A stretch of DNA of 64,000 nt, from the NCBI RefSeq assembly GCF_963921235.1, contig NC_086097.1, positions 132,806,001 to 132,870,000 of the forward strand. The letters are read 5' to 3'. The stretch's first letter is position 1. Every line of letters starts with the position of its first letter. Below are positions 1 to 57,945 of this stretch, in pieces. The position numbers were made by a program, and so were the translations under genes. Below the pieces are notes generated by a model. That model saw nothing but the letters and a program-made list of their open reading frames with translations, was not told where the DNA came from and did not search any database. The stretch is from Mobula hypostoma. Lineage: Eukaryota.

Positions 1-730
1 AGGTGGCTTTCCAAAAGTCAAAGGAAATGGTGATGTCAGAGACTGTACTCACACATTATAATCCATATGGTCCAGTGAAGCTTGCCTTATGGTATAGGTG
101 CAGTCATGTCACATGCTATGAGTGATGAAAGTGAACACCTCATTACCTTTGCATCACTTTCCCTTACCGCTGCAGAGAAAAGTTACGCACAGATTGACGG
201 AGAGGCCTTGAGTCTGGTTTGGGGTGCAAAATGTTACAACCAGTACTTGGATGAGAAAGTTTACTATCGTTACTGGGCATAAACCACTGGTGTCCATTTT
301 CAATCCACAGAAGAGCGTTCCACTAACAGCAGAAGCAAAAATGCAGAGATGGGCTCTGTTTTCAGAGGAAACAATTACAAGATCAAATTCAAGAGGACAA
401 CTAATCATGGAATTGCTGATGGATTGTCCCGTTTACCCTTGAAAAAGGAAATACCTGAAAAATTTACAAAGGAGGACACTGCTCTTGACCTATTCTCCCT
501 AATGTAAATTGGACGTTCCTCTATCATGACAGAGATGATCCAATGGGAAACTAGAAAAGACTCCACACTGTCTCAAGTCTACATGGCAATCCAAAGTGGC
601 TGAAATGTGCAGCAGAAATTCCAGTTCTCCAATTTTTTTTAAACCGGATCCAGTTTGAACTTGCCCTGGTTGGGGGTTGTCTTGAGTGGGGACTGAGAGT
701 TGTTGTACTATCCAAGCTGAGAAGTAAAGT
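1..730 (+). mobile_element. Ty3/Gypsy LTR retrotransposon pol remnant (RT/RNase H region), frameshifted
   Basis: ORFs 82-282 (PYGIGAVMSH...FASLSLTAAEKSYAQIDGEALSLVWG) and 224-442 (KFTIVTGHKPLVSIFNP...MQRWAL) are typical Gypsy RNase H motifs split across frames. Confidence 0.85.
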
Positions 731-987
731 GGTATGGCAGCATTGTGGTTAGCACAACACTTCACAGTGTAGACAGCCTGGGTTCAATCCCTTCTGCTGC
801 CTGTAAGGAGTTTGTACTTTCTCCCCATGAACACGAGGGTTTTCTCTGGGTGCTCCAGTTTCCTCCCACAGTCCAAAGACGTACCAGTGGGCAGGTCATT
901 ATAAATTGTCCCATGATTAGGCTCAGGTTAAGTTGGGAGTTACTGGGTGGTGTGACTCAAAGGGCTGGAAGGGGCTATTGTTCTCAA

Positions 988-990
<3 letters not shown>
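731..990 (+). mobile_element. tRNA-derived V-SINE (HE1-like)
   Basis: A/B-box-like head (GTGGTTAGC...GGTTCAATCCC), V-domain core (TGTAAGGAGTTTGTAC...GGGTGCTCCAGTTTCCTCCCACAGTCCAAAGAC), ends in the (AAAT)n tail. Confidence 0.85.
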
Positions 991-1066
<76 letters not shown>

Positions 1067-1080
1067 ATAGATGAATAAAT
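986..1080 (+). repeat. (AAAT)n microsatellite, expanded SINE tail
   Basis: About 20 near-perfect AAAT units directly after the SINE. Confidence 0.98.
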
Positions 1081-11135: not shown

Positions 11136-14100
11136 GCAAGGCCCCTTCAGATGCATTCACCAAGACTTAAATATTTGTACACATGGATGGAAGATTCAAA
11201 GCCAATATCTTTCAACCAAGCAGATAGTCAAAGGACTTTGCTGAGAGTGGTGCATGAATATACTATTCTAGTAATCATTAAAGGCTCATTTGGCCACAAA
11301 AAAACATCAAAAACAACACCTGCCTTGCAGGGCAGGAGCCTGTTGAAAACTGCAAGTCTTGCCAGGAGCGAGTCATTGTTTAAAGTAGTGAGTGAGAGAG
11401 CAACATCTTGCAGGACGGGAGCCATTTGAAAACCGCAGTTCTCATCGGGAGTGTGTCATTATTCGAGCCAGTAAAAAGAAAGGAAGTGTAAACAGAGCAG
11501 CTATTGTTGAGTGGAGCAGTTAGACTGGTCTGGCTTTGGCTCCACAGGCTTCAGCAAGAGCAGGCTTGGACAAGCACAGACACAGGCTCCAAGTTTCTAG
11601 TAATTTTTTTGTTAGTACATAACCAGTGCACTGAGAATGGGTCGAGAATTAGTGATATGTTCCTTGTGTGAGATGTGGGAACTTTAGGATACCTCCAGTT
11701 TCCCTGATAACTACTTCTGCATGGTGCACCAAGCGGCAGCTCCTTAGAGACCACGTTAAGGAAATGAAGCTGCAACAGGATGCCTTTGTCTCATTCAGGA
11801 CAATGACGAGATGATAGGAGCTACGGGGAGGTAGTCAGCCCTACACTGCAGGAGGCAGGTAGCTGAGTGACTGTCAAGAGAGGGAAATGGAACAGGGCAG
11901 CCAGTGCCTTTGTGGATATTCCCCTCAATATGATGGGTGACAAGGTCCTGCTAAGTGAGTTCAGGTAGTTGGGTGCTAAGTGAAAGGATGGGACCTCCAG
12001 TGTTGTAACCTTAGTATTGCCACCTGTGCCATATGTTAGTAATAGAAAGATCTTATAGTTTAACACATAACTAAGGAGTTAGTGCAGGAGGGACGGCCTC
12101 TGATTTTTGGATCATTGCGCTGTCTTCTAGAGAAGGTAGGGCATGTACAGAAGGGATGGTTTGCACCTGAACTGGAGGGGACTAATATCCTAGTGTAAAG
12201 GTTTGCTGGTGCTGCATAGGGGTGCTTGGGGGTTGGTGGGGTGGGGGGCTTTAAGCTAGAGTTGCAAGGGAATGGTAACAGAGCACCTGAACAGATAGGG
12301 GAGTAGTTGTGGAGAAAGATGTTAAGCCTACGTACAAAGTCAGGACTCAAAAGGTTGAGCATGGTGGGGCTAATATTCTAAGTGGCGTATATTTCAAAGC
12401 AAGAAAGATTGTAGGAAAGGCAGATGAGCTTAGGGCATAGATCAGCACATAGAATTATGACATTGTAGCCATTAATGAGATGGTTGCAGGAGGGACAGGA
12501 GTGGTACTGTACCTCAGTGTTCCAGGGTTCCATTGTTTTAGACATGAAAGAGCAGGAGAGATTAAAGGGGATGGAGTGGCATTACTAGTCATGGAAAATG
12601 TGACAGCAGTGCTTAGACATGACAGACTGGAAAGCTCATCTAGATAGGCTTTATGGGTAGAAATGAGGAACAGGAAAGGTACGACTATGTTAATGGGATT
12701 CTGTTACAGACAATGCAACAGTGCCTGGGATTTGGAGGAGCAAATTTGTAGAGAGATAGCAGACTGTTGCGAGAAAGGTAAGGTTGAGATAGTAGGTGAT
12801 TTTAACTTTCCACATTGACTGGGACTCCATACGGTAAAAAGGCTGAATGGGAAAGAAAATGTCCTTAATCATTACATAGAAGACACAGCTAAAGAGAGTG
12901 TGATACTCACTCTCCTATTAGGGAATGAGATAGGGCAGGTGACAGAGGTTTGTGTTGGGGAACACTTTCCATCCAGTGAACATAATGCCATTAGTTTCAA
13001 GGCAACTATGCAAAAAGATAGATCTGGTCCTCAGGTTGAGATTCTAAATTGAAAAGGGCCAATTTTGATGGTATCAGAGAGGATGTGACAAGTGTGGATT
13101 GGATTAGGTTGTTTTCTGGCTAAGGTGTACTTGGTAAGTGAGAAGTCTTCAAAGGTGAAATGTTATGAGTACATAGTTTGAATGTTCCTGTTACAATAAA
13201 AGTCAAGTAAAACAGGTTTATGGAACCTTGGTTTTCTAGAGATATTGAAGCCCTGATTAAGCCAAAAAAGGAGGTACACAGCAGTTATAGGCTGTTAGGA
13301 ACAAAGGAGATACCTGAGGAGTACAAGAAATGCAAGAGAACATATAAAGAAGTAAATCAAGAGAGTTGAAAGAAGACATGAGGTTGTTCTGGCAGATGTG
13401 TAGGAGAATCCAATGAGCTTCTACAGATAGAGTATATAAAGAGCAAAAGGATTGCAAGGGCCAATATTGGTCCTCTGGAAACTCATACTAGCAATTTATG
13501 CATGGAGCCGAAAGAGATGAGGGAGATCTTAAATGGATGTTTTTGCATCTGTGTTTACTCAGGAGACAGACATAGAGTCTGTAGATGAGAGGCAATGCAG
13601 CAGCGAGGTCATGGACCCTATAAAGATTACAGAGGAAGAGGCACTGGGTGTCTTGAAGCAAATTAGGGTGGATAATTCCCCTGGGCCTGGCAAGGTGTTC
13701 TCTCGGACCATAGGGGAGACTAGTACAGAAATTGCAGAGATACTTAAAACATCCTTAGCCACAGTTCAGGTGCCGGAGGATTGGAGGATAACTAATGTTG
13801 TTCCATTGTTTAAGACAGGCTCTAAGAATAAGACAGGAAATTATAGGCCGGCAAGCCTGACATCAGTCGTGGGAAAGTTGTTGGAAGGTATTCTAAGGGA
13901 GGAGATATATAAGCATTTGGAGAGGCAAGGATTGATTAGGGATAGCCAACATTGCTTTGTGCGTGGTAAGTCATGTCTAAACAATCTTACAGAATTGATG
14001 AAGGCAAGGCAGTGGATGTTGTTTACCTGGACTTTAGCAAGACCTTTGATAAAGTGTCACATGAGAGCTTGGTCAAGAAGATTCAATTGTTTGGCATTCA

Positions 14101-14442
14101 GGCTGAGGTAGTACATTGGATTAGACATTGATTTTGTTGAAGAAGCTAGAGAGTGGCTGTAAATGGCTGCCTCTCTGACTAAAACCTATGACTGGTGGTC
14201 TGTCGTAGGGATTTATTCTGGGTCCGTTGCTGTTTGTCATCTATAAGAATGATCTGGATGATAATATGGTAAACTGGATTAGCAACTTTGCAGATGACAT
14301 CAAGATTGGGGGTTGAGTAGTAGATAGTGAGGAAGACTATCACAGCCTGCAGCGAGATCTGGATAAGAAGAAAAGATGGGCTGCAAAATGGCTGATGGAA
14401 TTTAATACAGACAAATGTGAGGTGTTGCACTATGCTTGCATG

Positions 14443-14710
14443 TTGAGATACAGTGCAGAATAAACCCTTCAAGCTGCACCGTGCAGCAATCCCCTGATTT
14501 AATGCTAGCCTAATCATGAGACAATTTACAATGATCAATTAACTTACCAACTGGCACGTCTTGCACTAAGGGGAGGAAACCGGACGACCCGGAGGAAACC
14601 CACACGGTCACAGGCAGAACATACAAACTCTTTACAGGAAGTGGCAGGAATTGAACCCGGGTCGCTGGTACTGTAAAGCGTTGTGCTAATCACGACGCTA
14701 CCTGCTGTCC
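14443..14710 (-). mobile_element. Full-length V-SINE forming the 3' end of the NUBP2 insert
   Basis: Reverse complement shows head GGTAGCGTCGTGATTAGCAC...GGGTTCAATTCC, the V-domain and 3' end CTGTATCTCAA. Same family as 731-990. Confidence 0.88.
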
Positions 14711-14924
14711 AACTACTGTGTCGTATACAGGTATAAAATCTTCCTCCACAAATGCCAGCTGCTTCTTGGTCAATTTGTAATTTTATATCAAGTATTGATA
14801 GTTTTTGGTGCATCCTAATAATCAAGAACTATTAGGTAAAGGAGTTAGCTCGTGAGTCAGTGATGATTATATTTAATGGTGGATGAGGCATGACAGTCTA
14901 AATAAGCCATTTCTGTTTCTATGG

Positions 14925-15476
14925 TTATGTATCATGTCCAGAGAATTCACTATCATTGTTTACAATCTTCTCCACTATTTTATTAATGGCATCAAAAGTT
15001 GCACTCTTTGGAAAGGCTTGGTTGAAATCTCTACCTTCTTCCATTCTATGCATCAGTTGAGGATCTAGAGGAACACATCCTAGAAATGGAACAACGGACT
15101 GCCCAGAAAGTGCTTCTCCACTTTGCCTGGAAAATACATTAGTGCATTCTGAACAGTTTAGGCCGACAAAGACACTCTTGTTTTCAATTATTCCAATGAG
15201 AGGTAATCCAGTTTTCTTAAAGAATGTCAATTTCCTTCTCACATCTCCTATAGATACTGCTTGAGGTGTTGTAACCGACAGAGCTCCATCAGGTTTATGT
15301 TGGCAAAGGGCCTGCTCCACTGAGATATGTTCATCAGAAGCTCCCGGAGGTGCATCTACAATGAGATAGTCAAGCTCTCCCCATGCCACATCAGAAAGAA
15401 ATTGTTTGATAAAAGCTGCTCTCTTTGGCCCACTCCATATCACAGCATCATCTGGAATCTCCAAGAGAAAGCCTAT
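14925..15476 (-). pseudogene. NUBP2: Processed, 5'-truncated retrocopy of NUBP2 (cytosolic Fe-S cluster assembly factor, Cfd1)
   Basis: IGFLLE.PDDAVIW.GPK.AAFIKQFLSDVAWGELDYLIVDAPPGASDEH...TTPQAVSIGDVRR.LTF...IIEN.S...CSECTNVFS...VPFLGCVPLDPQL matches the NUBP2 C-terminal two thirds with no introns. The P-loop is absent and CPHC reads GLNC. Confidence 0.93.
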
Positions 15477-15733
15477 GGCGAGGGCCAACCAAGGTAGTTC
15501 TTACATGGTGAGCAGCAGAGCACTGAGGAGTGCAGTAGAACAGTGGGATCCGGGAATACTGATCCATAATTCCTTGAAAGTGGTCTCACAGGTAGATAGA
15601 GTAATAAAGAAAACTTTGGCACATTGGCCTTCATAAATTAGTGTATTGAGTACAGGAGTTGGGTTGTTACGTTGAATTTTATAAGACATTGATGAGGCCT
15701 AATTTGGAATACTGTGTGCAGTTTTGTTAACCT

Positions 15734-16568
15734 TGTGACAAAAGAACCAGTTATCAGAATATTGATGCCAATAAGAGGACAATGGGGGAACATGCAAGGT
15801 GCTAATAAGAGAGAGACGAGAGAGATTACCAAAAGGAGACACGGTTCCGAGTATTGTCAGAGACCGGTGGCTTTGAACCTTGAACTGTTTGAAGTTTGAT
15901 GGACAGGCAATACCCCAGCAGGGGGATAAAAAGGGACAGGTTCGCTAAGGCAACAGACACACGACTCCACGAGGTAACGAGACCCTGAAAGCGGTGTGCC
16001 CCCCCACAAGTTGGTGGGAGTTTTTGGAGGTCTTGAGGTTTTTGGGACCAGCCATAGACGCACAGGGTGGAAAGATACGGTCGGGCGGGAACCTGGTGTG
16101 TGTGTCCGCCCTTGCCTGGGTGCCGGGTTCACTGCAGAAGAACGATTGTATCTGGAACAGAGGGGTCACAGTCGGTGACCTCAGAAGATGTTACAAAGGG
16201 CTCGCCCGAAAGCTACCTGCGAGGAATATTGAAGGTCTGTTTGGAAACCGTTTTGCATATTCATTTGTTCTCTCTCTCTCCCCAATGACACGACGGCGAC
16301 TACTGCGAACTGAATTAAACTGAACTCTGTGTCACTTGATGACTGATCATTTTACCCCTCGACTGCAATAGAGCTTGATTGATCCTATTATCCTAGTTCT
16401 GTGTACATGTGTGTTTTATCATTGCTAAACTGTTGCAGTTATATCCGTTTGATTAGAGTACTGTGTTGCTTATTTCTTTAATAAAACTTCCTTAGTTCCA
16501 GTAATCCAGACTCCAACTAAGTGGTCCATTTCTGCTGGTTTGGCAACCCAGTTACGGGGTACATAACA
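15734..16568 (+). mobile_element. Solo LTR (835 bp), 4-bp TSD
   Basis: TGT...ACA termini. TSD ACCT at 15730-15733 and 16569-16572. TATA-like GATAAAA at ~15925 and AATAAA at ~16480. The CR1 resumes in register afterwards. Confidence 0.9.
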
Positions 16569-17659
16569 ACCTATCTTCAAATAAAAAGATATAAGTAAAA
16601 TTGAAAGCGTAGAGAAAATTTACGAGGATGTTGCTGAGAGTTGAGGACCTGAGAGTTAAGGAAAGGTCGAATAGGTTTTGACTTTCTTCTCCAAAACCTG
16701 GAAGATTGAGGGTAGATTTGATAGAGGATACAAAATTATGAAGGTTTGTTTTCTCTGATGTTGGATGAGACTACTACTAGAGGTCATGGGTTAAGGTTGA
16801 AAGTTGAAATGTTTAAGGAGTTATGAGGGGGACCTTCTTCGCTCAAAGGTTGGTGAGAGCGTGGAACAAGCCTCCAGCACAAGTGGTGGATGCGGTGTCG
16901 ACTTCAGCTTTTAAGAGAAATTTGGATAGGATGAGAAGGGTATGGAGGGCTATGGTCCAGGAGCAGGTCAACGGGACTTAGCAGATTAATAGTTTGGCAC
17001 AGTCTAGATGGGCTGAAGGGCCGAAGGGCCTGTTTCTGTGATGTAGTGTTCTATGACTATAAGTTGCTCACAGCTCATAAAACACAACCTTATTAAATAA
17101 TTTCTAACAAGCAAACAAGAAGTCATCTATCTTCCAAGCTGAAACAAAGATTTATTTTATCTTTATACAAGTCAGGCTGCTATTCATCTCTCCAATTAAA
17201 AATGATTCATGCAATGTTGCCTCCAATTATTTTCATCTCATGCGACTCCTTCTCTTTCTGAAATGTCTTCAGCTACTTTTAACTCTCTTATCCACAAGAG
17301 TAAAGACTCTTATGCTGCTCAAGTTTTCTAACAGTAAATGCCATCTTGTGGTTACACCATACACCAGAATGGGACTCAGCACTAAATAAATTTTCATCTT
17401 ACTTCCCAAATCCCATCATAAACTTGAGTCTCTGTTGATCTGCTCCTTAACCTGCCACCTCAAGACCATTAATTTTCTTGCATCATATGGGGTATCCCAT
17501 ATTTAAAGAACTGGCAATGCTGCCTGCAATTAGGCACTCTTTATCCTATATTCCTTACTAAAGTTGGCTCAACACATACTTAGCTTTTCACAGTAGTCTG
17601 AACTAGAATGAAAGTCAGATATCTGCACATCCACCACTGTACTGAATATCAAACCAAAT

Positions 17660-19191: not shown

Positions 19192-19801
19192 GCAACACAC
19201 ACAAAATACTGGAAGAACTCAGCAGGTCAAGCAGCATCCATGGATCTATGGAAAGGAATAAACAGTTTGTGTTTCAGGCCGAGGCCTTTTATCAGGACCG
19301 GAAAAAAAAGATAAGAAATCAGGATAAGAGTTGGGGGGAGGGAGGGAAGATGTACAAGGTGGTAGGTGATAAGTGAAACTGGGAGGGGGGAGGGGGTGAA
19401 GTAAAGAGCTGGAAATTTGATTAGTGAAAGAGATAAAGAGCTGGAGGAGGCGGGGGATCTAAAAGAAGAGGGTAGAAGACCATGGAAGAAAGGGAAGGAC
19501 AAAGAGTCCAGAGGCAAGTAATGGGCAGGAAAGGAAAAAGGTGAGAGAGGGAAACCAGGAATGGGGAATGGTGAATAGGGGTGGGGGGAGAAGCAGTTAC
19601 TGGGAATTTGAGAAATCAATGTTCATGCCATCTGGTTGGAGGAATACAAGGTGTTCCTCCTTCAGACTGAGTGTGGCCTCATCACAGCAGCAGAGGAGGC
19701 CATGGACTGACATACCGAAATGACAGTGGGAAGTAAAATTGAAATAGGTGACTATTGGGAGATCCCACTTTTTCTGGTTGTTGATTGCCAGAAAGTTTGC
19801 T
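19192..19801 (-). mobile_element. Penelope-like 3' fragment with 16-bp TSD
   Basis: TSD TTCAAGTTT(A/G)TTGATG at 19176-19191 and 19802-19817. ORF motif DEATLSLKEEHLVF.LQPDGMNIDFSN. Confidence 0.85.
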
Positions 19802-24904: not shown

Positions 24905-25748
24905 AAGGTTCAAAGGAACATCTAAACAAGCCTGATGCATTTTGGAAACAAGTCCTGTGGACTGATGAAGTTCAAATAAAACTTCTTGGCCGCAATGAGC
25001 AAAGGTATGTTTGGAGAGAAAAGGGTGCAGAATTTCATGAAAAGAACCCTCTCCAACTGTTAAACATGGGGGTGGATCGATCATGCTTTGGGCTTGTGTC
25101 GCAGCCAGTGGCATAGGGAACATTTACTGGAAGAGGGAAGAATGAATTCAATTAAATACCAGCGAATTCTGGAAGCAAACATCACACCGTCTGTAAAAAA
25201 GCTGAAGATGAAAAGAGGATGGCTTCTACAACAGGATAATGAACCAAAAAACACCTCAAAATCCACAATGGACTACCTTAAGAGGCGCAAACTGAAGGTT
25301 TTGCCATGGCCCTCATGGTCCCCTGACCTAAACATCATCAAGAATCTGTTGATAGACCTCAAAAGAGCAGTGCGTGCAAGGCAGCCCAAGAATCTCATAG
25401 AAGTAGAAACCTTTTGCAAGGAAGAATGGGCAAAAATCCCCCAAACAGGACTTGAAAGACTCTTAGCTGGCTGCAGAAAGTGTTTACAAGCTGTGATACT
25501 TGCCAAATGGGGTGTTACTAAGTACTGACCATGCAGGGTGCCCAAACTTTTGCTTCAGGCCCTTTTCCTTTTTTGTTATTTTGAAACTGTAAAAGATGGA
25601 AATAAAGAAGTTTTCTTGCTTAAAATATTAAAGAAATGTGTCATCTTTAACTTTATGCCTTTTTGAAATCAGTTCATCTTTTACTCGCTTAGCTATTCAC
25701 AGTAACAGAAATTTTGACCGGGGTGCCCAAACTTTTGGATACCACTAT
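24905..25748 (+). mobile_element. Tc1-family transposon, 3' half (DD34E domain + IR/DR right end)
   Basis: FWKQVLWTDE, TVKHGGGSIMLW, LQQDNEPKNTS, WPSWSPDLNIIKNL. Direct repeats GGGTGCCCAAACTTTTG at ~25536 and ~25721. Ends near TA. Confidence 0.92.
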
Positions 25749-42667: not shown

Positions 42668-45600
42668 TACTACTACTACTACTACTACGTCGACTCAGGC
42701 CTAGGGGGCTGGCGTCGCGCACGATGACGGACTCTCCACTTCTCCCTCTCCCTCATCAGTGTGTTCAGTTCATCTACATTAGCCGCGCCACTGTCTTCTA
42801 GGAGCGTGTTGACCATAGTCATGGGAGGGCACCCAGGGTTCATCCTCCTGTGCTTGGGCTCCCATATGATGACTAGGCTGGCAGGTGGCTCGGGATGGCG
42901 TAGACAGTGCCCCGCTAGTTGCAGTCTTCTTGCCTTGATTTTAGTGGTAAGCATCGGTAGGTTGTTATAGAGCTCGACGTTCGTCATGTGCTGTTGCCAA
43001 CTCATGTTAAGAACCATCCGGAGCATTCGTGTATAGCAACCATCTAGAGACTTTTGCATAGTCTTGGTGAGTGTACACGTCTCGCATCCGTACGTGAGAA
43101 TGGACTCTATGACTGCTATGAAAATCCTCTTTTTAAGCCCTCTGGTGAGGTTCGACTTCCAGATTTCCTTCATGTCGTTCATAGCCCTCTACGCCAGTGC
43201 CTTCCGTATCTTTATGTCCTTCTCCAAACTCATCATTCTTGACCCAAGGTACTTGTAGTCAAAGACTTTCTTAATGGTATCATTCTCTACAGTCTTGAGA
43301 GTACTTTCGTTGCAGTTAAACGCCAAGTACTCTGTCTTTTTAGTGTTTAGGTGAAGTCCAACTTTATTGCACTCAATTTCCACTTTTGTCAGTAGCTGCT
43401 GTGCTTCCTCCATCTGGTCAGAGAGCAGGACTATGTCATCTGCAAAATCGAGATCTGTGAGCGTAACTGATCTGACCCTTTTGGTTCGCCATGGTTTTGT
43501 GGTAAAACCAAGCTTGTCATGATCTTTGGTAGCTTGACGCAGAGCGTGATCAAAGACGATTATAAAGCTGTAGGGTGCCAGAGTGTCTCCTTGCAGCACA
43601 CCAGCTAGGAGCTCGAACACTGCTGTTTCTCCATCTGGTGATACAACTTTCGCCATGGTTTTGGTATAGCTGGACTCTATTGCTCTCAGTAGATGGTCTG
43701 GCACTCCATAAACTTTCAGGATCTTCGGTGTTTTATCTCGGTGTATGGAGTCAAAAGCTTTGCGAAAATCGACGTAAGTAAGCATGGCTGGTAGGTTGTT
43801 CTTCTTGACTTCCTCAATGATCCTATGGAGAGCAAGTATTTGCATTACTGTTGTTCTCTTCTGGCGAAAACCATTCTGATTGAATCTTAGCTTAGGGTCA
43901 ATGGCGGTGCGAATCCTGTTCAAGATCATCCGACTACATAACTTTGCTAAGATGCAGGTCAAGCTGATACCGCGGTAGTTATCTGTCTTGTGAAGGATCC
44001 AGACTTGGGGACTGGGATAATGCTTGAGAGTGACCATTGTTCTGGTTTGTCGCCTTTCATCAGTGCCGTACTACATATGTCCAGCTAGATGTCGTCCAGG
44101 TCGCAGTTCTTCAGGACATCTGGTGGTATCCCATCTGGTCTAGCACTCCTACCCTGTTTGAGTGCATATTTGGCCTTCTTCAGTTCCTCAATGGTGAATG
44201 GGCCGTCATCAATGTCGACTTGCATTAGTATCATGGGTATGTCCTCTTCTTCTTCCATGATCGTTGGAGGGCTTCCCAGCAGGTACTTAAAGTGGGTAAA
44301 CCATGTCAGGACACGGTCCTCTGCTGTTTTATCACTTATTTGACCTGATGGGAACTTCTTTCATCTACTGATCTCATTGACTAGGCGCCATGCTTCTCCA
44401 TGCTGCATGTCTTCATTAGCAGCTTCTATCTCTCTAATCCTCTCAGCTAGTTCCCCTTCCTTCAGTCAGTCATAGGTGGCAAAGAGATTCTTCTCTGCTG
44501 TCTTGAACTTGTCTCTTAGCTCTTCTGTTTCGCTCCTTCGAAGTTCGGCATGACAAGCATTGACCACACCTCTTGCTGCGACAACATCAGGATGTTTCGA
44601 GATCCGACTCTCCTTAGTTTGCTTCACAGTAGGCAAACTCTTTGTTGCATCTGTGTGTGCGTCTATGACCCATTGATAGCGGTCGGTGGCAGTCTCTTCC
44701 TCCCCCCCCTTTCCAGTGGGCCGCAGCAATTTCTCACCTCCACTGTGTACTGGGCTTGAAGAATAGGTTGTGAGGAGAATGCCTTCCAGTCTATCTTCTC
44801 CTTGGGACCTGTGCCTTTGGGTTGCCGCAGGCTCAGTCTCACTTGCATTGACACTACTCTGTGATCAGAACTGACCGAGTTGAAGGTGCTGTAGGTTTCT
44901 GTGTTGGTCACACAATTACGCCATTTTGTTCTTACGAGGATGTAATCGAGCTGTTTCCTGCAGATGGAGGCTCTGTTTTCAAATGTCCACAGTTTACCAG
45001 CTCGCTTCTTGAATTGTGTGTTGGCACCAATGAGACTGTGTTCCTGGATGAAGTCAACTAGATATTGTCCATTTCTGTTGGTAAAGTCTCGTTATGAGTA
45101 TGGAACATCTTCCAGTCTGACCTGGGCATTAAAATCGCCAAGCACAGCCAAGAAGTTATGCGCTGGTATTGAAGTGACAGCTTCATGAAGTTTACCGTAG
45201 AAGGCCTCCACTTCCTTCTCCTTGCTGCAGTTGTGCGGGGAGTAACAGATGATGACAGAGGTTGTCAGGTTTCCGTCGAATTCTGCAGTAAGAATTCTGT
45301 CACTGACTGAGACTACGCCCCTCAGTGCCTCCTTCACCTTGGTGTTCAACATCAGCCCTACTCCACCTTGTGATGACATCGTCGTCGGCTCTCTCCATGC
45401 AGACGAGGTGATGAGGTGCATCCCCTCTACCTCTGTGAACCTTATCTCTTCGTCAGGGTGTACATGATGGTGTTCTTGGATCGCCAGGATGGAGATCTTC
45501 TAGCTGCTTGCCTGTGATGCCAACTCTGTGCATCAAGGAAAGAGGCGGATGGTGTTTGCGTTGAAGGTTGAGATGATCGTTTTTACCTTACAACGCAAAA

Positions 45601-46821: not shown

Positions 46822-47274
46822 TTAGCGGAAGTTTGAGAAGTCAATGTTCATGCCATCAGGTTGGAGGCTACCCAGACGGAATATAAGGTGTTGTTCCTCC
46901 AACCTGAGTGTGGCTTCATCTTTACAGTAGAGGAGGCCGTGGATAGACATATCAGAATGGGAGTGGGACATGGAACGAAAATGTGTGACCACTGGGAGAT
47001 CCTGCTTTCTTTGGCGGACAGAGCGTAGGTGTTCAGCGAAACGATCTCCCAGTCTGCGTCTGGTCTCACCAATGTATAGAAGGCCACATCGGGAGCACCG
47101 GACACAGTATATCACCCCAGCCGACTCACAGGTGAAGTGTCGCCTCACCTGGAAGGACTGTCTGGGGCCCTGAATGGTGGTGAGGGAGGAAGTGTAAGGG
47201 CATGTGTAGCACTTGTCCCGCTTACAAGGATAAGTGCCAGGAGGGAGATCGGTGGGGAGGGATGGAGGGGACAA
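46822..47274 (-). CDS. Penelope-like GIY-YIG endonuclease domain (intact frame, truncated element)
   Basis: C..C..C linker, VIYC.RC.RC..LYIGET.R.L..RF.EH, R.EEQ.LI..L.SL.P.GMN. Confidence 0.9.
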   Translation of the reverse strand: MSPPSLPTDLPPGTYPCKRDKCYTCPYTSSLTTIQGPRQSFQVRRHFTCESAGVIYCVRCSRCGLLYIGETRRRLGDRFAEHLRSVRQRKQDLPVVTHFRSMSHSHSDMSIHGLLYCKDEATLRLEEQHLIFRLGSLQPDGMNIDFSNFR

Positions 47275-48844
47275 ATGGACAAGGGAGTCACATAGAGAGC
47301 GATCCCTGTGGAAAGCCGGGGGGGGGGGGAGGGAAAGATGTGCTTAGTGGTGGGATCTCGTTGGAGGCGGTGGAAATTACGGAGAATTTATGTTATTTTG
47401 TTTTAAGATTTTAAAAGGCCTGTGGAAAAGAATACGAAAAGTCTTACTTCAAATTAACAAGCCTCTTGGAAAAAATATTAAACATTTCAGAAAGAAGTAA
47501 AAACACTTTTCCATTATCAAGCGGCAAAAGCATGCAAGTCTTTTAAAATAAATAAGACTTTGAAAAGATTTTAAACTGTCATTTTAAATTAACAAGCATT
47601 TGAAAGACTTTAAAAAGTTTTTCTCAATCAACAAGATAGATTTCATAAAGTTGTTTAAGGTAACAAGCTAAATAGAATTTGCCTTTTAAAGGAGTTCTGA
47701 ACAAGGGGATATAAGTAGTACCAGGAAAGTGGTTGGCTATTTAAGACTAAGATGTATAAAAATCCCTTCTCTCAGACAGTAGTGAATCGCTGGAATTTTC
47801 TGCCCCTGAGGATGGTGGAGGCCAGTCATTAAAAATATCTAAAGTATGGACAAATTCTGTGCTAGCGAATCAGACAATGCAAAGAACGCACCTGGACTTG
47901 ACTTTGTGTTGGGTTCATTTATGACACAGCCAGGACAGAAAATATTAGCTGTGGGCATTCAGAATTAGTTCAGAAACTTAACAGAAGCTGCCTTGACATC
48001 AGAAAGGGCAAATGGATTGTCCATTAGTAGTATCTTTTTCTACTGTACTTTCTATGAGAAACACATGAACATTAACATCATGCAACTAGCAGTTGATGCT
48101 AGATAGAAAGTCGATTGAAATACCTTGCTAATTTTCTACAACATATGAAGATGAGTTCATATTTCACTTCTGCAAAAGGTAATTCAAAAAAATACTGAGA
48201 TTCTGGAGATCTAAAATAAAAATGGAAAATCAAAGTCAGGTTTTTTTTCATAAACACAAGTACATGTATGTATAGGTGCAATGAAAAGCCCACTTGCAGC
48301 AGTATCACAAGCATATAGCATCATATAAGCAGCATTCAGAATAAAAAAAAGCAAATTAAACATAAATTATACTCAGTTTTTTCGATGAAGTGCACAATTA
48401 GAACAAAAAATCCATTTTAAGGCAAAGCGATTAATTTGGTCATAACACTGCTAAACCATAGTGACTACAGGTTTGCTGCTTGGTTCAAGAAAAGAATGGT
48501 TGGAGGGAAGTAGCTCTCTTGAACCTGGTGGTGTGGGGTTTCAGGACTCTACACATCCTGATTGTAGTTGCAAGGTGTTGGGGATTTTTGACGATGGATG
48601 TGGCCTTTTTTAGACAGCACCTCACGTTAATAATACGAACAGTTGGGATGGAGATATTCAGCAGGTCAAGCCACATCTATGGAAAGAGAAACAGGGTTAA
48701 CATTTTCTGTCAAAAGTTCTTTGTTGAAAAATATCATTCAAATCAGATATACTGTAGATAGAGCACTAATTTATCATTTATGGATTACGGTGCTGGTTTT
48801 GAGCTGTTTTGAAATCTCTGGATGATATACTGAAAATGTACATA

Positions 48845-55735: not shown

Positions 55736-56721
55736 AAGAACAAAGATATCCACAAAAACAATGGAACTCTTTCTTTTGATGCTATATCTCTTTCTACAGA
55801 CGCTGCTTGACCCTTACTGTTTTCTGAGATTTTTAACCCGCAATGATAGCTAACATTTGAGTTCTCTGCCATTTTCTCAATCTCTGGACAATCTTTCACT
55901 GTTAAATGAGATATCTCTCAGGTAAATAATATCTTCTTTCCATTCAGTGTTGGATTAATCTCACTATGACTTTTGATCAAAATTGAGATACATCTGTATC
56001 AGAACTATGGACATTAGTGATGGCCCTTGGACACTCTACCATGACATGCTCTGCATAAGTGAGAACCTGGCACTACCACAAACAGCATGTTAATATGCAG
56101 CAGAGCACTGTGATCTGATACCACTCTGGTTACACATTGTTCCCTGGCCAGCATTTGAAATTTCAAAAGATCTTCTGGATCCATGCACTCAATCCCTATC
56201 CAGGCCTTTGAAACTCACAAGGGGTCATAAATAAGTACCTTGTGTTAGACCTGAAGTAATAGCTCCCTCGCTTTGATCTCTTAATGTCAAATCATTCATA
56301 GCATATGGATATATCATACATTTTTTGTCCATCTCTAATTGTTTCTGAATTTACATGAGAGTCAAGGGTTAAAGGGGTGGCATATTTCTTTCAGTTAATG
56401 AATTGGAAGGGATTTCAACATGATCTAGTACTTTCAAAGCAATTTATATTGAATCTAGCTTTTATATTTAAATTTCAGATTTAGTTAATTGCTTCAATGT
56501 AATTGAATAAGGACTTCAAACCCATGTCTCTGCATGAGTGGACTGGAACTCTGGCTCTCAGCCCAATCATTTAACCATTACAATGCTGGATATATTGGGG
56601 ATGTCCTTACTATTTATTTGCACATTGATTGTCCACATCTACCATCACTTCTGTGGGTGTGACCTTCTTTAATTTGTTCTCTCTTATTTCAGATTTCCAG
56701 TACTTTTGTAGTCTCAGTTAA

Positions 56722-57945
56722 CCTTAAGAACATAACAAATAGGAGAAGGAGTAGGCCATCTGGCCTGTCGAGCCTGCTCTGTCATTTTATAAGATCATGG
56801 ATGATCTGGCCATAGACTAATCTCTACCTGCCTGCCTTTTCCCCATAACCCTTAATTCCCCTACTATGCAGAAATTCATCCAACCTTATCTTAAATATAT
56901 TTACTGAGGTAGCCTCCACTGCTTCATTGGGCAGAGTATTCCACAGGTTCACCATTCTCTGGGAAAAACAGTTCTTCCACATCTCCGTCCTAAATCTACT
57001 CCCCCGAATCTTGAGGCTATGTTGCCTGGTTCTAGTTTCACTGCAAGTGGAAACAACTTTCCTACTTCTACCTTATCGATCCATTTCAAAATTCTTTATG
57101 TTTCTATGAGATCTTCTCTCATCCTTCTGAATTCCAGTGAGTACAGTCCCAAGCGACTCAATCTCTCCTCATAGTCTAAACCCCTCATCTCTGCAATCAA
57201 CCTGATGAACCTCCTCTGCACCACCTCCAAAGCCAGTATATCCTCCTTCAAGTAAGGAGACCAGAACTGCATGCAGTACTCCAGGTGCGGCCTCACCAGT
57301 ACCCTGTACGGTTGCAGCTTAACCTCCCTGCTGTTAAATTCAATCCCTCCAGCAATGAAGGCCACATTCTATTTACCTTCTTGATAGCCTGTTGCACCTG
57401 CAAACCAAACTTTTGTGATTCATGCACAAGCACTCGCAAGTCCTCTGCACAGCAGCATGCTGCAATTTTTTACCAGTTAAATAATAACCTGCTCTTTCAC
57501 CTTCCTTCAAAAGTCGATGACCTCACATTTACCAACATTGTACTCCATCTGCCAGACACTTGCCCACTCACTTAACCTATCTTTATCTCTCTGCAGGCTC
57601 TCCGTATCTTCTGCACAATTTGCTTATCCACTCAATTTAGTATCATCAGTAAACGTAGATACACCACTCTCAGTCCCTTCTCCCAGATCGTGAATGTGTA
57701 TCATGAACAGTTTGCCGGAACAGCATCGACCCACACGGCACACCGCTCATCACTGATTGCTCACCAGAGTAACACCCATGAAACTCAGCTCTCTGCTTTC
57801 TATTAGTTAACCAATCATCTATACACGCTCATACCTCACCCACAACTCTATGCATCCTTATCTAATGGATAAGTCGTTTATGCAACATTTTATCGAACGT
57901 CTTCTGGAAAACCATGTAAATAATGTCCATCTGTTCCCCTCTATC
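56722..57945 (-). mobile_element. CR1 3' part, same subfamily as 1279-2490
   Basis: Colinear and highly similar to 1280-2490. MAFIAGGIEFNSREV...VRPHLEYC. Confidence 0.92.

Follow-up and report, generated by a model that had tools for sequence, protein, structure and literature searches.

Processed pseudogenes made by L1 (PMC5470649) are intronless and 5'-truncated, retain their 3'UTR, are bounded by a target duplication and decay neutrally. The NUBP2 copy described here shares all of these traits, but it has no poly(A), a short duplication, no T-rich nick and a SINE at its end. SVA transductions such as MAST2-SVA_F1 offer a second comparison: a host Pol II transcript travels with a non-autonomous element and becomes a better substrate when a SINE stands at its end (a 3'-terminal AluSp raises mobilisation ~25-fold, PMC3287187). 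However, these transductions use the relaxed L1 enzyme and poly(A), whereas the enzyme here is likely a stringent CR1, the cargo is a multi-exon coding sequence, and no multiplication was seen. Chimeras of the U6-L2, U6-Mon1 and U6-AnolisSINE2 kind also place a cellular RNA 5' of a stringent-LINE tail and carry 1–9 bp duplications, and cellular RNAs are described as having to acquire such a tail to be moved by stringent LINEs (PMC4476161). They are attributed to template switching, whereas here the join pre-exists in the parental locus. The NUBP2 event would be a variant of these known transduction and chimera routes, and in how it works it would come closest to SVA/Alu-assisted mobilisation of host transcripts, with a stringent LINE in place of L1. 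Movement of an mRNA by CR1 via an inherited 3'UTR SINE was not found in the open-access literature searched.

The element at the end of the copy recalls the HE1 V-SINE/HER1 LINE pair of sharks and rays (PMC3747384, table row; PMC4824008), which combines a tRNA-like head (putative in the element here) with a V-domain and a tail held in common with a local LINE, the comparison being by description. A first-pass annotation of this locus took retrocopies to be rare in such genomes, a weak premise for cartilaginous fishes, in which 14,081 retrocopies, or 5.4% of loci, have been reported (bioRxiv 10.64898/2026.06.26.734816).

A decaying NUBP2 retrocopy inside a CR1 LINE

We analysed a 64,000-nt stretch of DNA (the window), in which the insertion and its surroundings comprise the following features.

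12500..14434, plus strand: host CR1 LINE with decayed ORF2, part upstream of the insertion, starting at or before 12500 (RVT_1 match and reading frame)
14430..14434, plus strand: left target duplication CTATG; C14435 may also be target (CR1 family reading)
14435..14442, minus strand: 7–8 nt between SINE body and target (junction crossed without gaps by X5 record 17)
14443..14710 (about; 268 nt), minus strand: V-SINE with putative tRNA-like head, V-domain and CR1-related tail (V-domain match, second copy, tail alignment)
14711..14924, minus strand: NUBP2 3'UTR, 214 nt (spliced parental contigs align to 14723 in X17 and 14742 in X11; a parental genomic contig covers the whole)
14925..15476, minus strand: intronless 3' two-thirds of the NUBP2 CDS, open but decaying (protein alignment, parental exon edges)
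15473..15477, plus strand: right CTATG copy, with CTAT common to NUBP2 as 5' microhomology (both parental RNA contigs stop at 15476)
15478..17063, plus strand: host CR1, remaining ORF2 and 3' tail, split in turn by an LTR-like insert (sequence comparison within the window)
15734..16568, strand not assigned: solo-LTR-like insert, 835 bp, TG...CA, with a 4-bp ACCT duplication (window sequence)

The insert is a 5'-truncated, decaying NUBP2 processed pseudogene that interrupts a CR1 LINE. As first described, the CR1 ORF2 is broken at CTATG, with copies at 14430-14434 and 15473-15477; its frame reads KCEVLHY to the left of the break and ARANQGSSY from 15478 on the right. In a profile search the upstream part matched RVT_1 with an E-value of 1.5e-4, under the curated cut-off. 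CR1 contigs bridge the insertion site with the NUBP2/SINE insert absent between the joined parts, and the family reading across the target site, taken from other CR1 copies and contigs, is CT-TTGG-GAGG. The same CR1 also holds the solo-LTR-like insert, ~260 nt from the retrocopy, which is independent of the NUBP2 finding.

The coding part is a minus-strand frame of 183 codons plus stop (15476-14925) that matches Pfam PF10609 (E 3.5e-51), bearing out the reported intronless NUBP2 CDS, and it is 5'-truncated, starting at about residue 127 of the parent protein (309 aa). The alignments of parental DNA contigs end at approximately 15081, 15262 and 15417, which mark the parental exon edges; both the window and the spliced parental RNA contigs run unbroken across these edges, so the introns are precisely absent. 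A RefSeq 'NUBP2-like' model of Mobula hypostoma, located on a 256-Mb contig, matches the translation at 100% identity. The true NUBP2 of this species (XP_062915319.1), on a 152-Mb contig, is 84% identical, which places the parent at another locus. Nucleotide divergence from the parent was 11.9% (90/754) for organism A and 103/735 for organism E. The putative 3'UTR of ~215 bp held up as 214 nt, fully spanned by the parental genomic contig.

The retrocopy has lost constraint. Relative to the parent, 30 amino acids in 183 codons have changed, 23 of them at columns invariant in nine elasmobranch NUBP2 proteins (picked from the listed clusters); the CPNC motif has become GLNC with loss of the first Cys, and the N-terminal P-loop half is absent. 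When decay was simulated with 30–50 random substitutions, the frame stayed open in 22–41% of runs, so no selection is needed to account for its being intact. A functional retrogene was ruled out by the changed invariant residues and the missing N-terminus, and the locus is non-functional, though RefSeq gives a 222-aa protein. No RNA run was listed as containing the retrocopy, which carries no weight in either direction. In that model (XP_062899039.1, window 14925-15500, minus strand) the first ~40 residues are not NUBP2, and it is probably an annotation artefact.

The terminal V-SINE and the parental locus

The V-SINE had been described as full-length, which is true of its 5' end but not of its 3' end, where the 9-nt tail unit and the (TAAA)n run are absent (both present in SINE family loose ends/the window's second copy). 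A 33-nt stretch of the BivaV-SINE2 V-domain (PMC4824008) matches 14571-14603 with three mismatches and in none of 100 shuffles, a test that covered 33 nt of the 80-bp domain. By eye, against the consensus, the head contains a B-box-like GGTTCAATTCC and a degenerate A box; ARAGORN and Rfam scans gave nothing. The tail block AAGGG..T.TTCTG..CTGTA can be aligned to four CR1 3' ends elsewhere in the window, as a LINE-derived tail should. A second SINE copy is 73% identical over 197 nt. This copy (window 730-1070) ends in a (TAAA)n tail of 20 units; it has lost 8 nt internally and bears a different deletion immediately ahead of the tail.

The hairpin GGCC-GAAG-GGCC folds in two of the three CR1 tails examined, none of which folds better than shuffled sequence (z -0.3 to -1.3), so the hairpin is taken from family conservation and the literature. 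The retrocopy SINE lacks the 5' arm and loop of this hairpin, the family unit GGCC-GGAAG-GGCC being half deleted. Both the half-deleted hairpin and the 9-nt loss are common to organisms A and B; since organism B has it, the 9-nt loss is old, and it may precede retroposition. The family is very abundant, with more than 30,000 contigs matched per DNA run. A SINE word found no match in metagenome or viral contigs, nor did a NUBP2 last-exon word in metagenome contigs. Among other CR1 sequences in the window, two pieces (1268-2488 and 56709-57945) are 84% identical, and at least three different CR1 tail types occur.

We compared the window with contigs from four of the 22 listed runs, considering the best 40 of 241 rows and 32 pieces. 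One genomic contig of a close relative (organism B, X5 record 22, 650 nt) aligns from its first letter over 14643-15081 and has 212 further letters unaligned, a stop at the last exon edge such as an intron would give. At each of the 37 differences listed within its span it has the same letter as X17 record 16, a spliced parental RNA contig from organism A. It covers the entire 3'UTR and 68 nt of the SINE with 63 mismatches and three gap letters in total; at most 26 of the 63 mismatches can lie in the SINE part (P ~1e-8 if the sequence were unrelated). The orthologous retrocopy of organism B is a separate contig (record 23, 14672-15534, 16 mismatches, no gaps). Record 22 is therefore not a hybrid with the retrocopy; its gaps, which record 23 lacks, set it apart from that copy, and its letters at the listed differences identify it as the parent locus. 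These contigs indicate that the SINE is inherited from the parental NUBP2 locus, as seen in organism B: a sense V-SINE lies ~215 nt after the parental stop codon, and record 22 runs into it, in agreement with the suggestion that the SINE already sat in the parental 3' region.

In transcripts, the alignment of the parental RNA contig from organism A (the same species) ends at 14723, 12 nt before the SINE, and leaves 170 letters unaligned; that of the organism E contig (X11) ends at 14742 and leaves 385. These stops are likely caused by gaps and decay near the border, and it is possible that the parental transcript has a different 3' end or splice there; the unaligned letters would enter the SINE if they are collinear with the DNA of organism B. 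Among the contigs listed, none from the parent covers the SINE 3' end. Organism E gave no coverage over 14466-14549, a hole that carries no weight. In one X17 RNA contig, 34 nt resembling the end of the NUBP2 CDS are followed by a SINE piece in a different order (joint 14967 to 14508), which may be a chance match at 80% likeness.

The retrocopy itself was also followed into relatives. In organism B, X5 record 17 spans the left junction (14372-14516, five mismatches, no gaps), so this organism has the insertion together with its extra bases and the loss of 9 nt from the tail; the retrocopy is present there with both junctions, the same SINE and the same left junction. Neither of the outcomes named beforehand as refuting, a target duplication of the SINE's own or a relative with poly(A) and no SINE, was seen at the site. 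Organism C (X9), which is more distant, yielded an intronless contig (14827-15384, 33 mismatches) that agrees with the window at 7 of the 17 listed positions at which both parental RNAs deviate from it. This implies that the insertion predates the split of organism C and that the retrocopy is orthologous there.

Junctions and the route of retroposition

CTATG stands on both sides of the insert, but CTAT at 15473-76 is also NUBP2 coding sequence, as both parental RNA contigs align to 15476 and then stop. The duplication overlaps this 4-nt microhomology, which allows readings of 2, 5 or 6 bp. Compared with what the 5-bp reading implies, the in-frame empty site is short by one base, so that reading calls for an older extra base and the 6-bp reading for a slip; the third is 2 bp, and the duplication is short in all of them. 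Target duplications peak at 3–5 bp for L2/CR1, 10–12 bp for RTE and 13–15 bp for L1 (PMC4245944, after Ichiyanagi and Okada 2008). A duplication of 2–6 bp with 4-nt 5' microhomology fits CR1/L2, including the 3–5 bp of a CR1-mobilised insertion, and is unlike L1 or RTE. The nick context is TATG/GC, which does not match the L1 motif TTTT/AA (PMC3287187), and the insert has none of the marks of an L1-type processed pseudogene (poly(A) remnant, 13–15 bp duplication, TTTT/AA nick). Its longest A-run is five letters; AATAAA is absent, the closest variant hexamer lying 63 nt away from the end.

The earlier observation that the insert ends close to the end of the co-oriented V-SINE without poly(A) was upheld, the end lying 7–8 nt past the SINE body: the insert runs two bases into the tail start and then continues with 7–8 other nt. 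At 14435..14442, three of seven letters match TAAATAA (P ~0.01 at 15% decay). We rejected decayed TAAA as their source (P 0.003–0.03 at 10–20% decay); they are probably filler or parental flank, and may be target-templated filler. TTGCA stands on both sides of the left duplication (14424-14442), and ATGC-TT-GCAT forms a tiny fold-back. Pairing of CTATG with the CR1 tail repeat was also rejected, having the wrong orientation for a minus-strand insert.

The SINE body end is where SINE retroposition itself would start, and the copy stops within 8 nt of it. From this end point, the CR1/L2-size duplication and the lack of both an A-tail and an L1 nick motif, we judge priming by a CR1-type reverse transcriptase at the CR1-like tail of the inherited SINE to be the single most likely route, with a probability of about 0.5. 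A spliced parental transcript would have read into the sense SINE in its 3'UTR, and a CR1-clade ORF2 protein would have attached to the SINE tail, with priming from a nick in the older CR1 copy. Copying would then have run through the SINE, the UTR and ~550 nt of CDS and closed on the 4-nt microhomology, a closure that could leave the 2–6 bp duplication read at the junctions. Changes held in common show that neutral decay of the copy began before the split of organisms A, B and C. CR1-group elements make up 22–34% of elasmobranch genomes (PMC13343379), and L1 is reported from Chondrichthyes only in fragmentary form (PMC5203782).

The first-pass interpretation is supported in part. Its key proposal, that the SINE tail licensed reverse transcription, would account for where the insert ends, for the short duplication and for the lack of poly(A), but the hairpin and TAAA run are damaged or absent, and this is a single case. 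Stringent LINEs require an intact stem-loop (PMC4176376, PMC5729268), so the missing hairpin 5' arm and loop and the missing (TAAA)n count against priming there. Elasmobranchs also have CR1-group Zenon elements with poly(A) tails (PMC13343379); these, together with RTE-like and other retroelement remains in the window, weigh against it too. Licensing of retroposition by the SINE tail is plausible but unproven, as a single old event.

One unlikely alternative is that the SINE merely set the mRNA 3' end, its TAAA tail supplying AATAAA, and that a poly(A)-recognising LINE copied the message, whose tail was later lost. The family tail (TAAA)n does contain AATAAA, and candidate enzymes can be named in Zenon, Tx1/L1-like or RTE elements, Zenon with poly(A) tails being found in elasmobranchs (PMC13343379); retrocopies are common in cartilaginous fishes (bioRxiv 10.64898/2026.06.26.734816), and this copy is old, at 11.9% from its parent. 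However, AATAAA, the spacer and the A-tail must all have vanished while the adjacent target copy stayed intact in two species, and the duplication is short for L1 or RTE (PMC4245944). The spacer between AATAAA and a poly(A) site is 10–30 nt.

We give similarly low weight to tail-independent capture, in which copying was primed internally or a cDNA was inserted at a DNA break; the SINE boundary would then be the end point either by coincidence or owing to the single-stranded state of the A-rich tail. The missing hairpin suits it, and the 7–8 extra nt resemble adjacent target (TTGCA on both sides of the left duplication), as repair filler can. Tailless retropseudogenes are known, but they track the relaxed L1, and neither platypus nor chicken is reported to have them (PMC5322556); moreover, the target duplication with 5' microhomology fits normal target-primed insertion, and a stop within 8 nt of the SINE end would be a coincidence.

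A template switch from SINE RNA to NUBP2 mRNA, as in the U6-L2 and U6-Mon1 chimeras, is largely refuted and very improbable. Such switching is known for stringent LINEs and their SINEs (PMC4476161), and the RNA contigs are unaligned across the UTR-SINE border, but a chimera's join should be absent from the parental locus, and X5 record 22 is collinear over it, which makes the switch raised in the first-pass annotation unnecessary. Later, separate insertion of the SINE at the retrocopy end is largely excluded and the least probable of all: the family is extremely abundant (>30,000 contigs per DNA run) and the organism C contigs do not cover the border (14718-14801), but the parent has the SINE at the same site, and the SINE shows neither a duplication of its own nor an A-rich remnant on either side.

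Wider reading and other elements in the window

Cartilaginous fishes are CR1-dominated yet rich in retrocopies. If SINE-tail priming by a CR1-type enzyme is true, it would be a route to gene copies without the mammalian-type L1 machinery. A broader and doubtful extension, which we put forward tentatively, is that in sharks and rays sense 3'UTR SINEs might act as built-in CR1 handles, opening any mRNA that acquires one to the dominant stringent LINE, and that a sizeable share of non-LTR retrocopies might be L1-free, with this locus as a fossil of the process. If 3'UTR SINEs license mRNAs, which genes are copied would depend on SINE content and not on expression alone, a prediction directly testable in existing assemblies.

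Other mobile-element remnants lie elsewhere in the window. An RT-bearing LINE remnant at 42688-45091 (minus strand; RVT_1 E 2.8e-31) is RTE-like by eye, and a Tc1/mariner-like DDE_3 transposase remnant occupies 25064-25528. A GIY-YIG-coding Penelope-like remnant is found at 46822-47343 (minus strand), with related pieces near 19600, 26100 and 55100.
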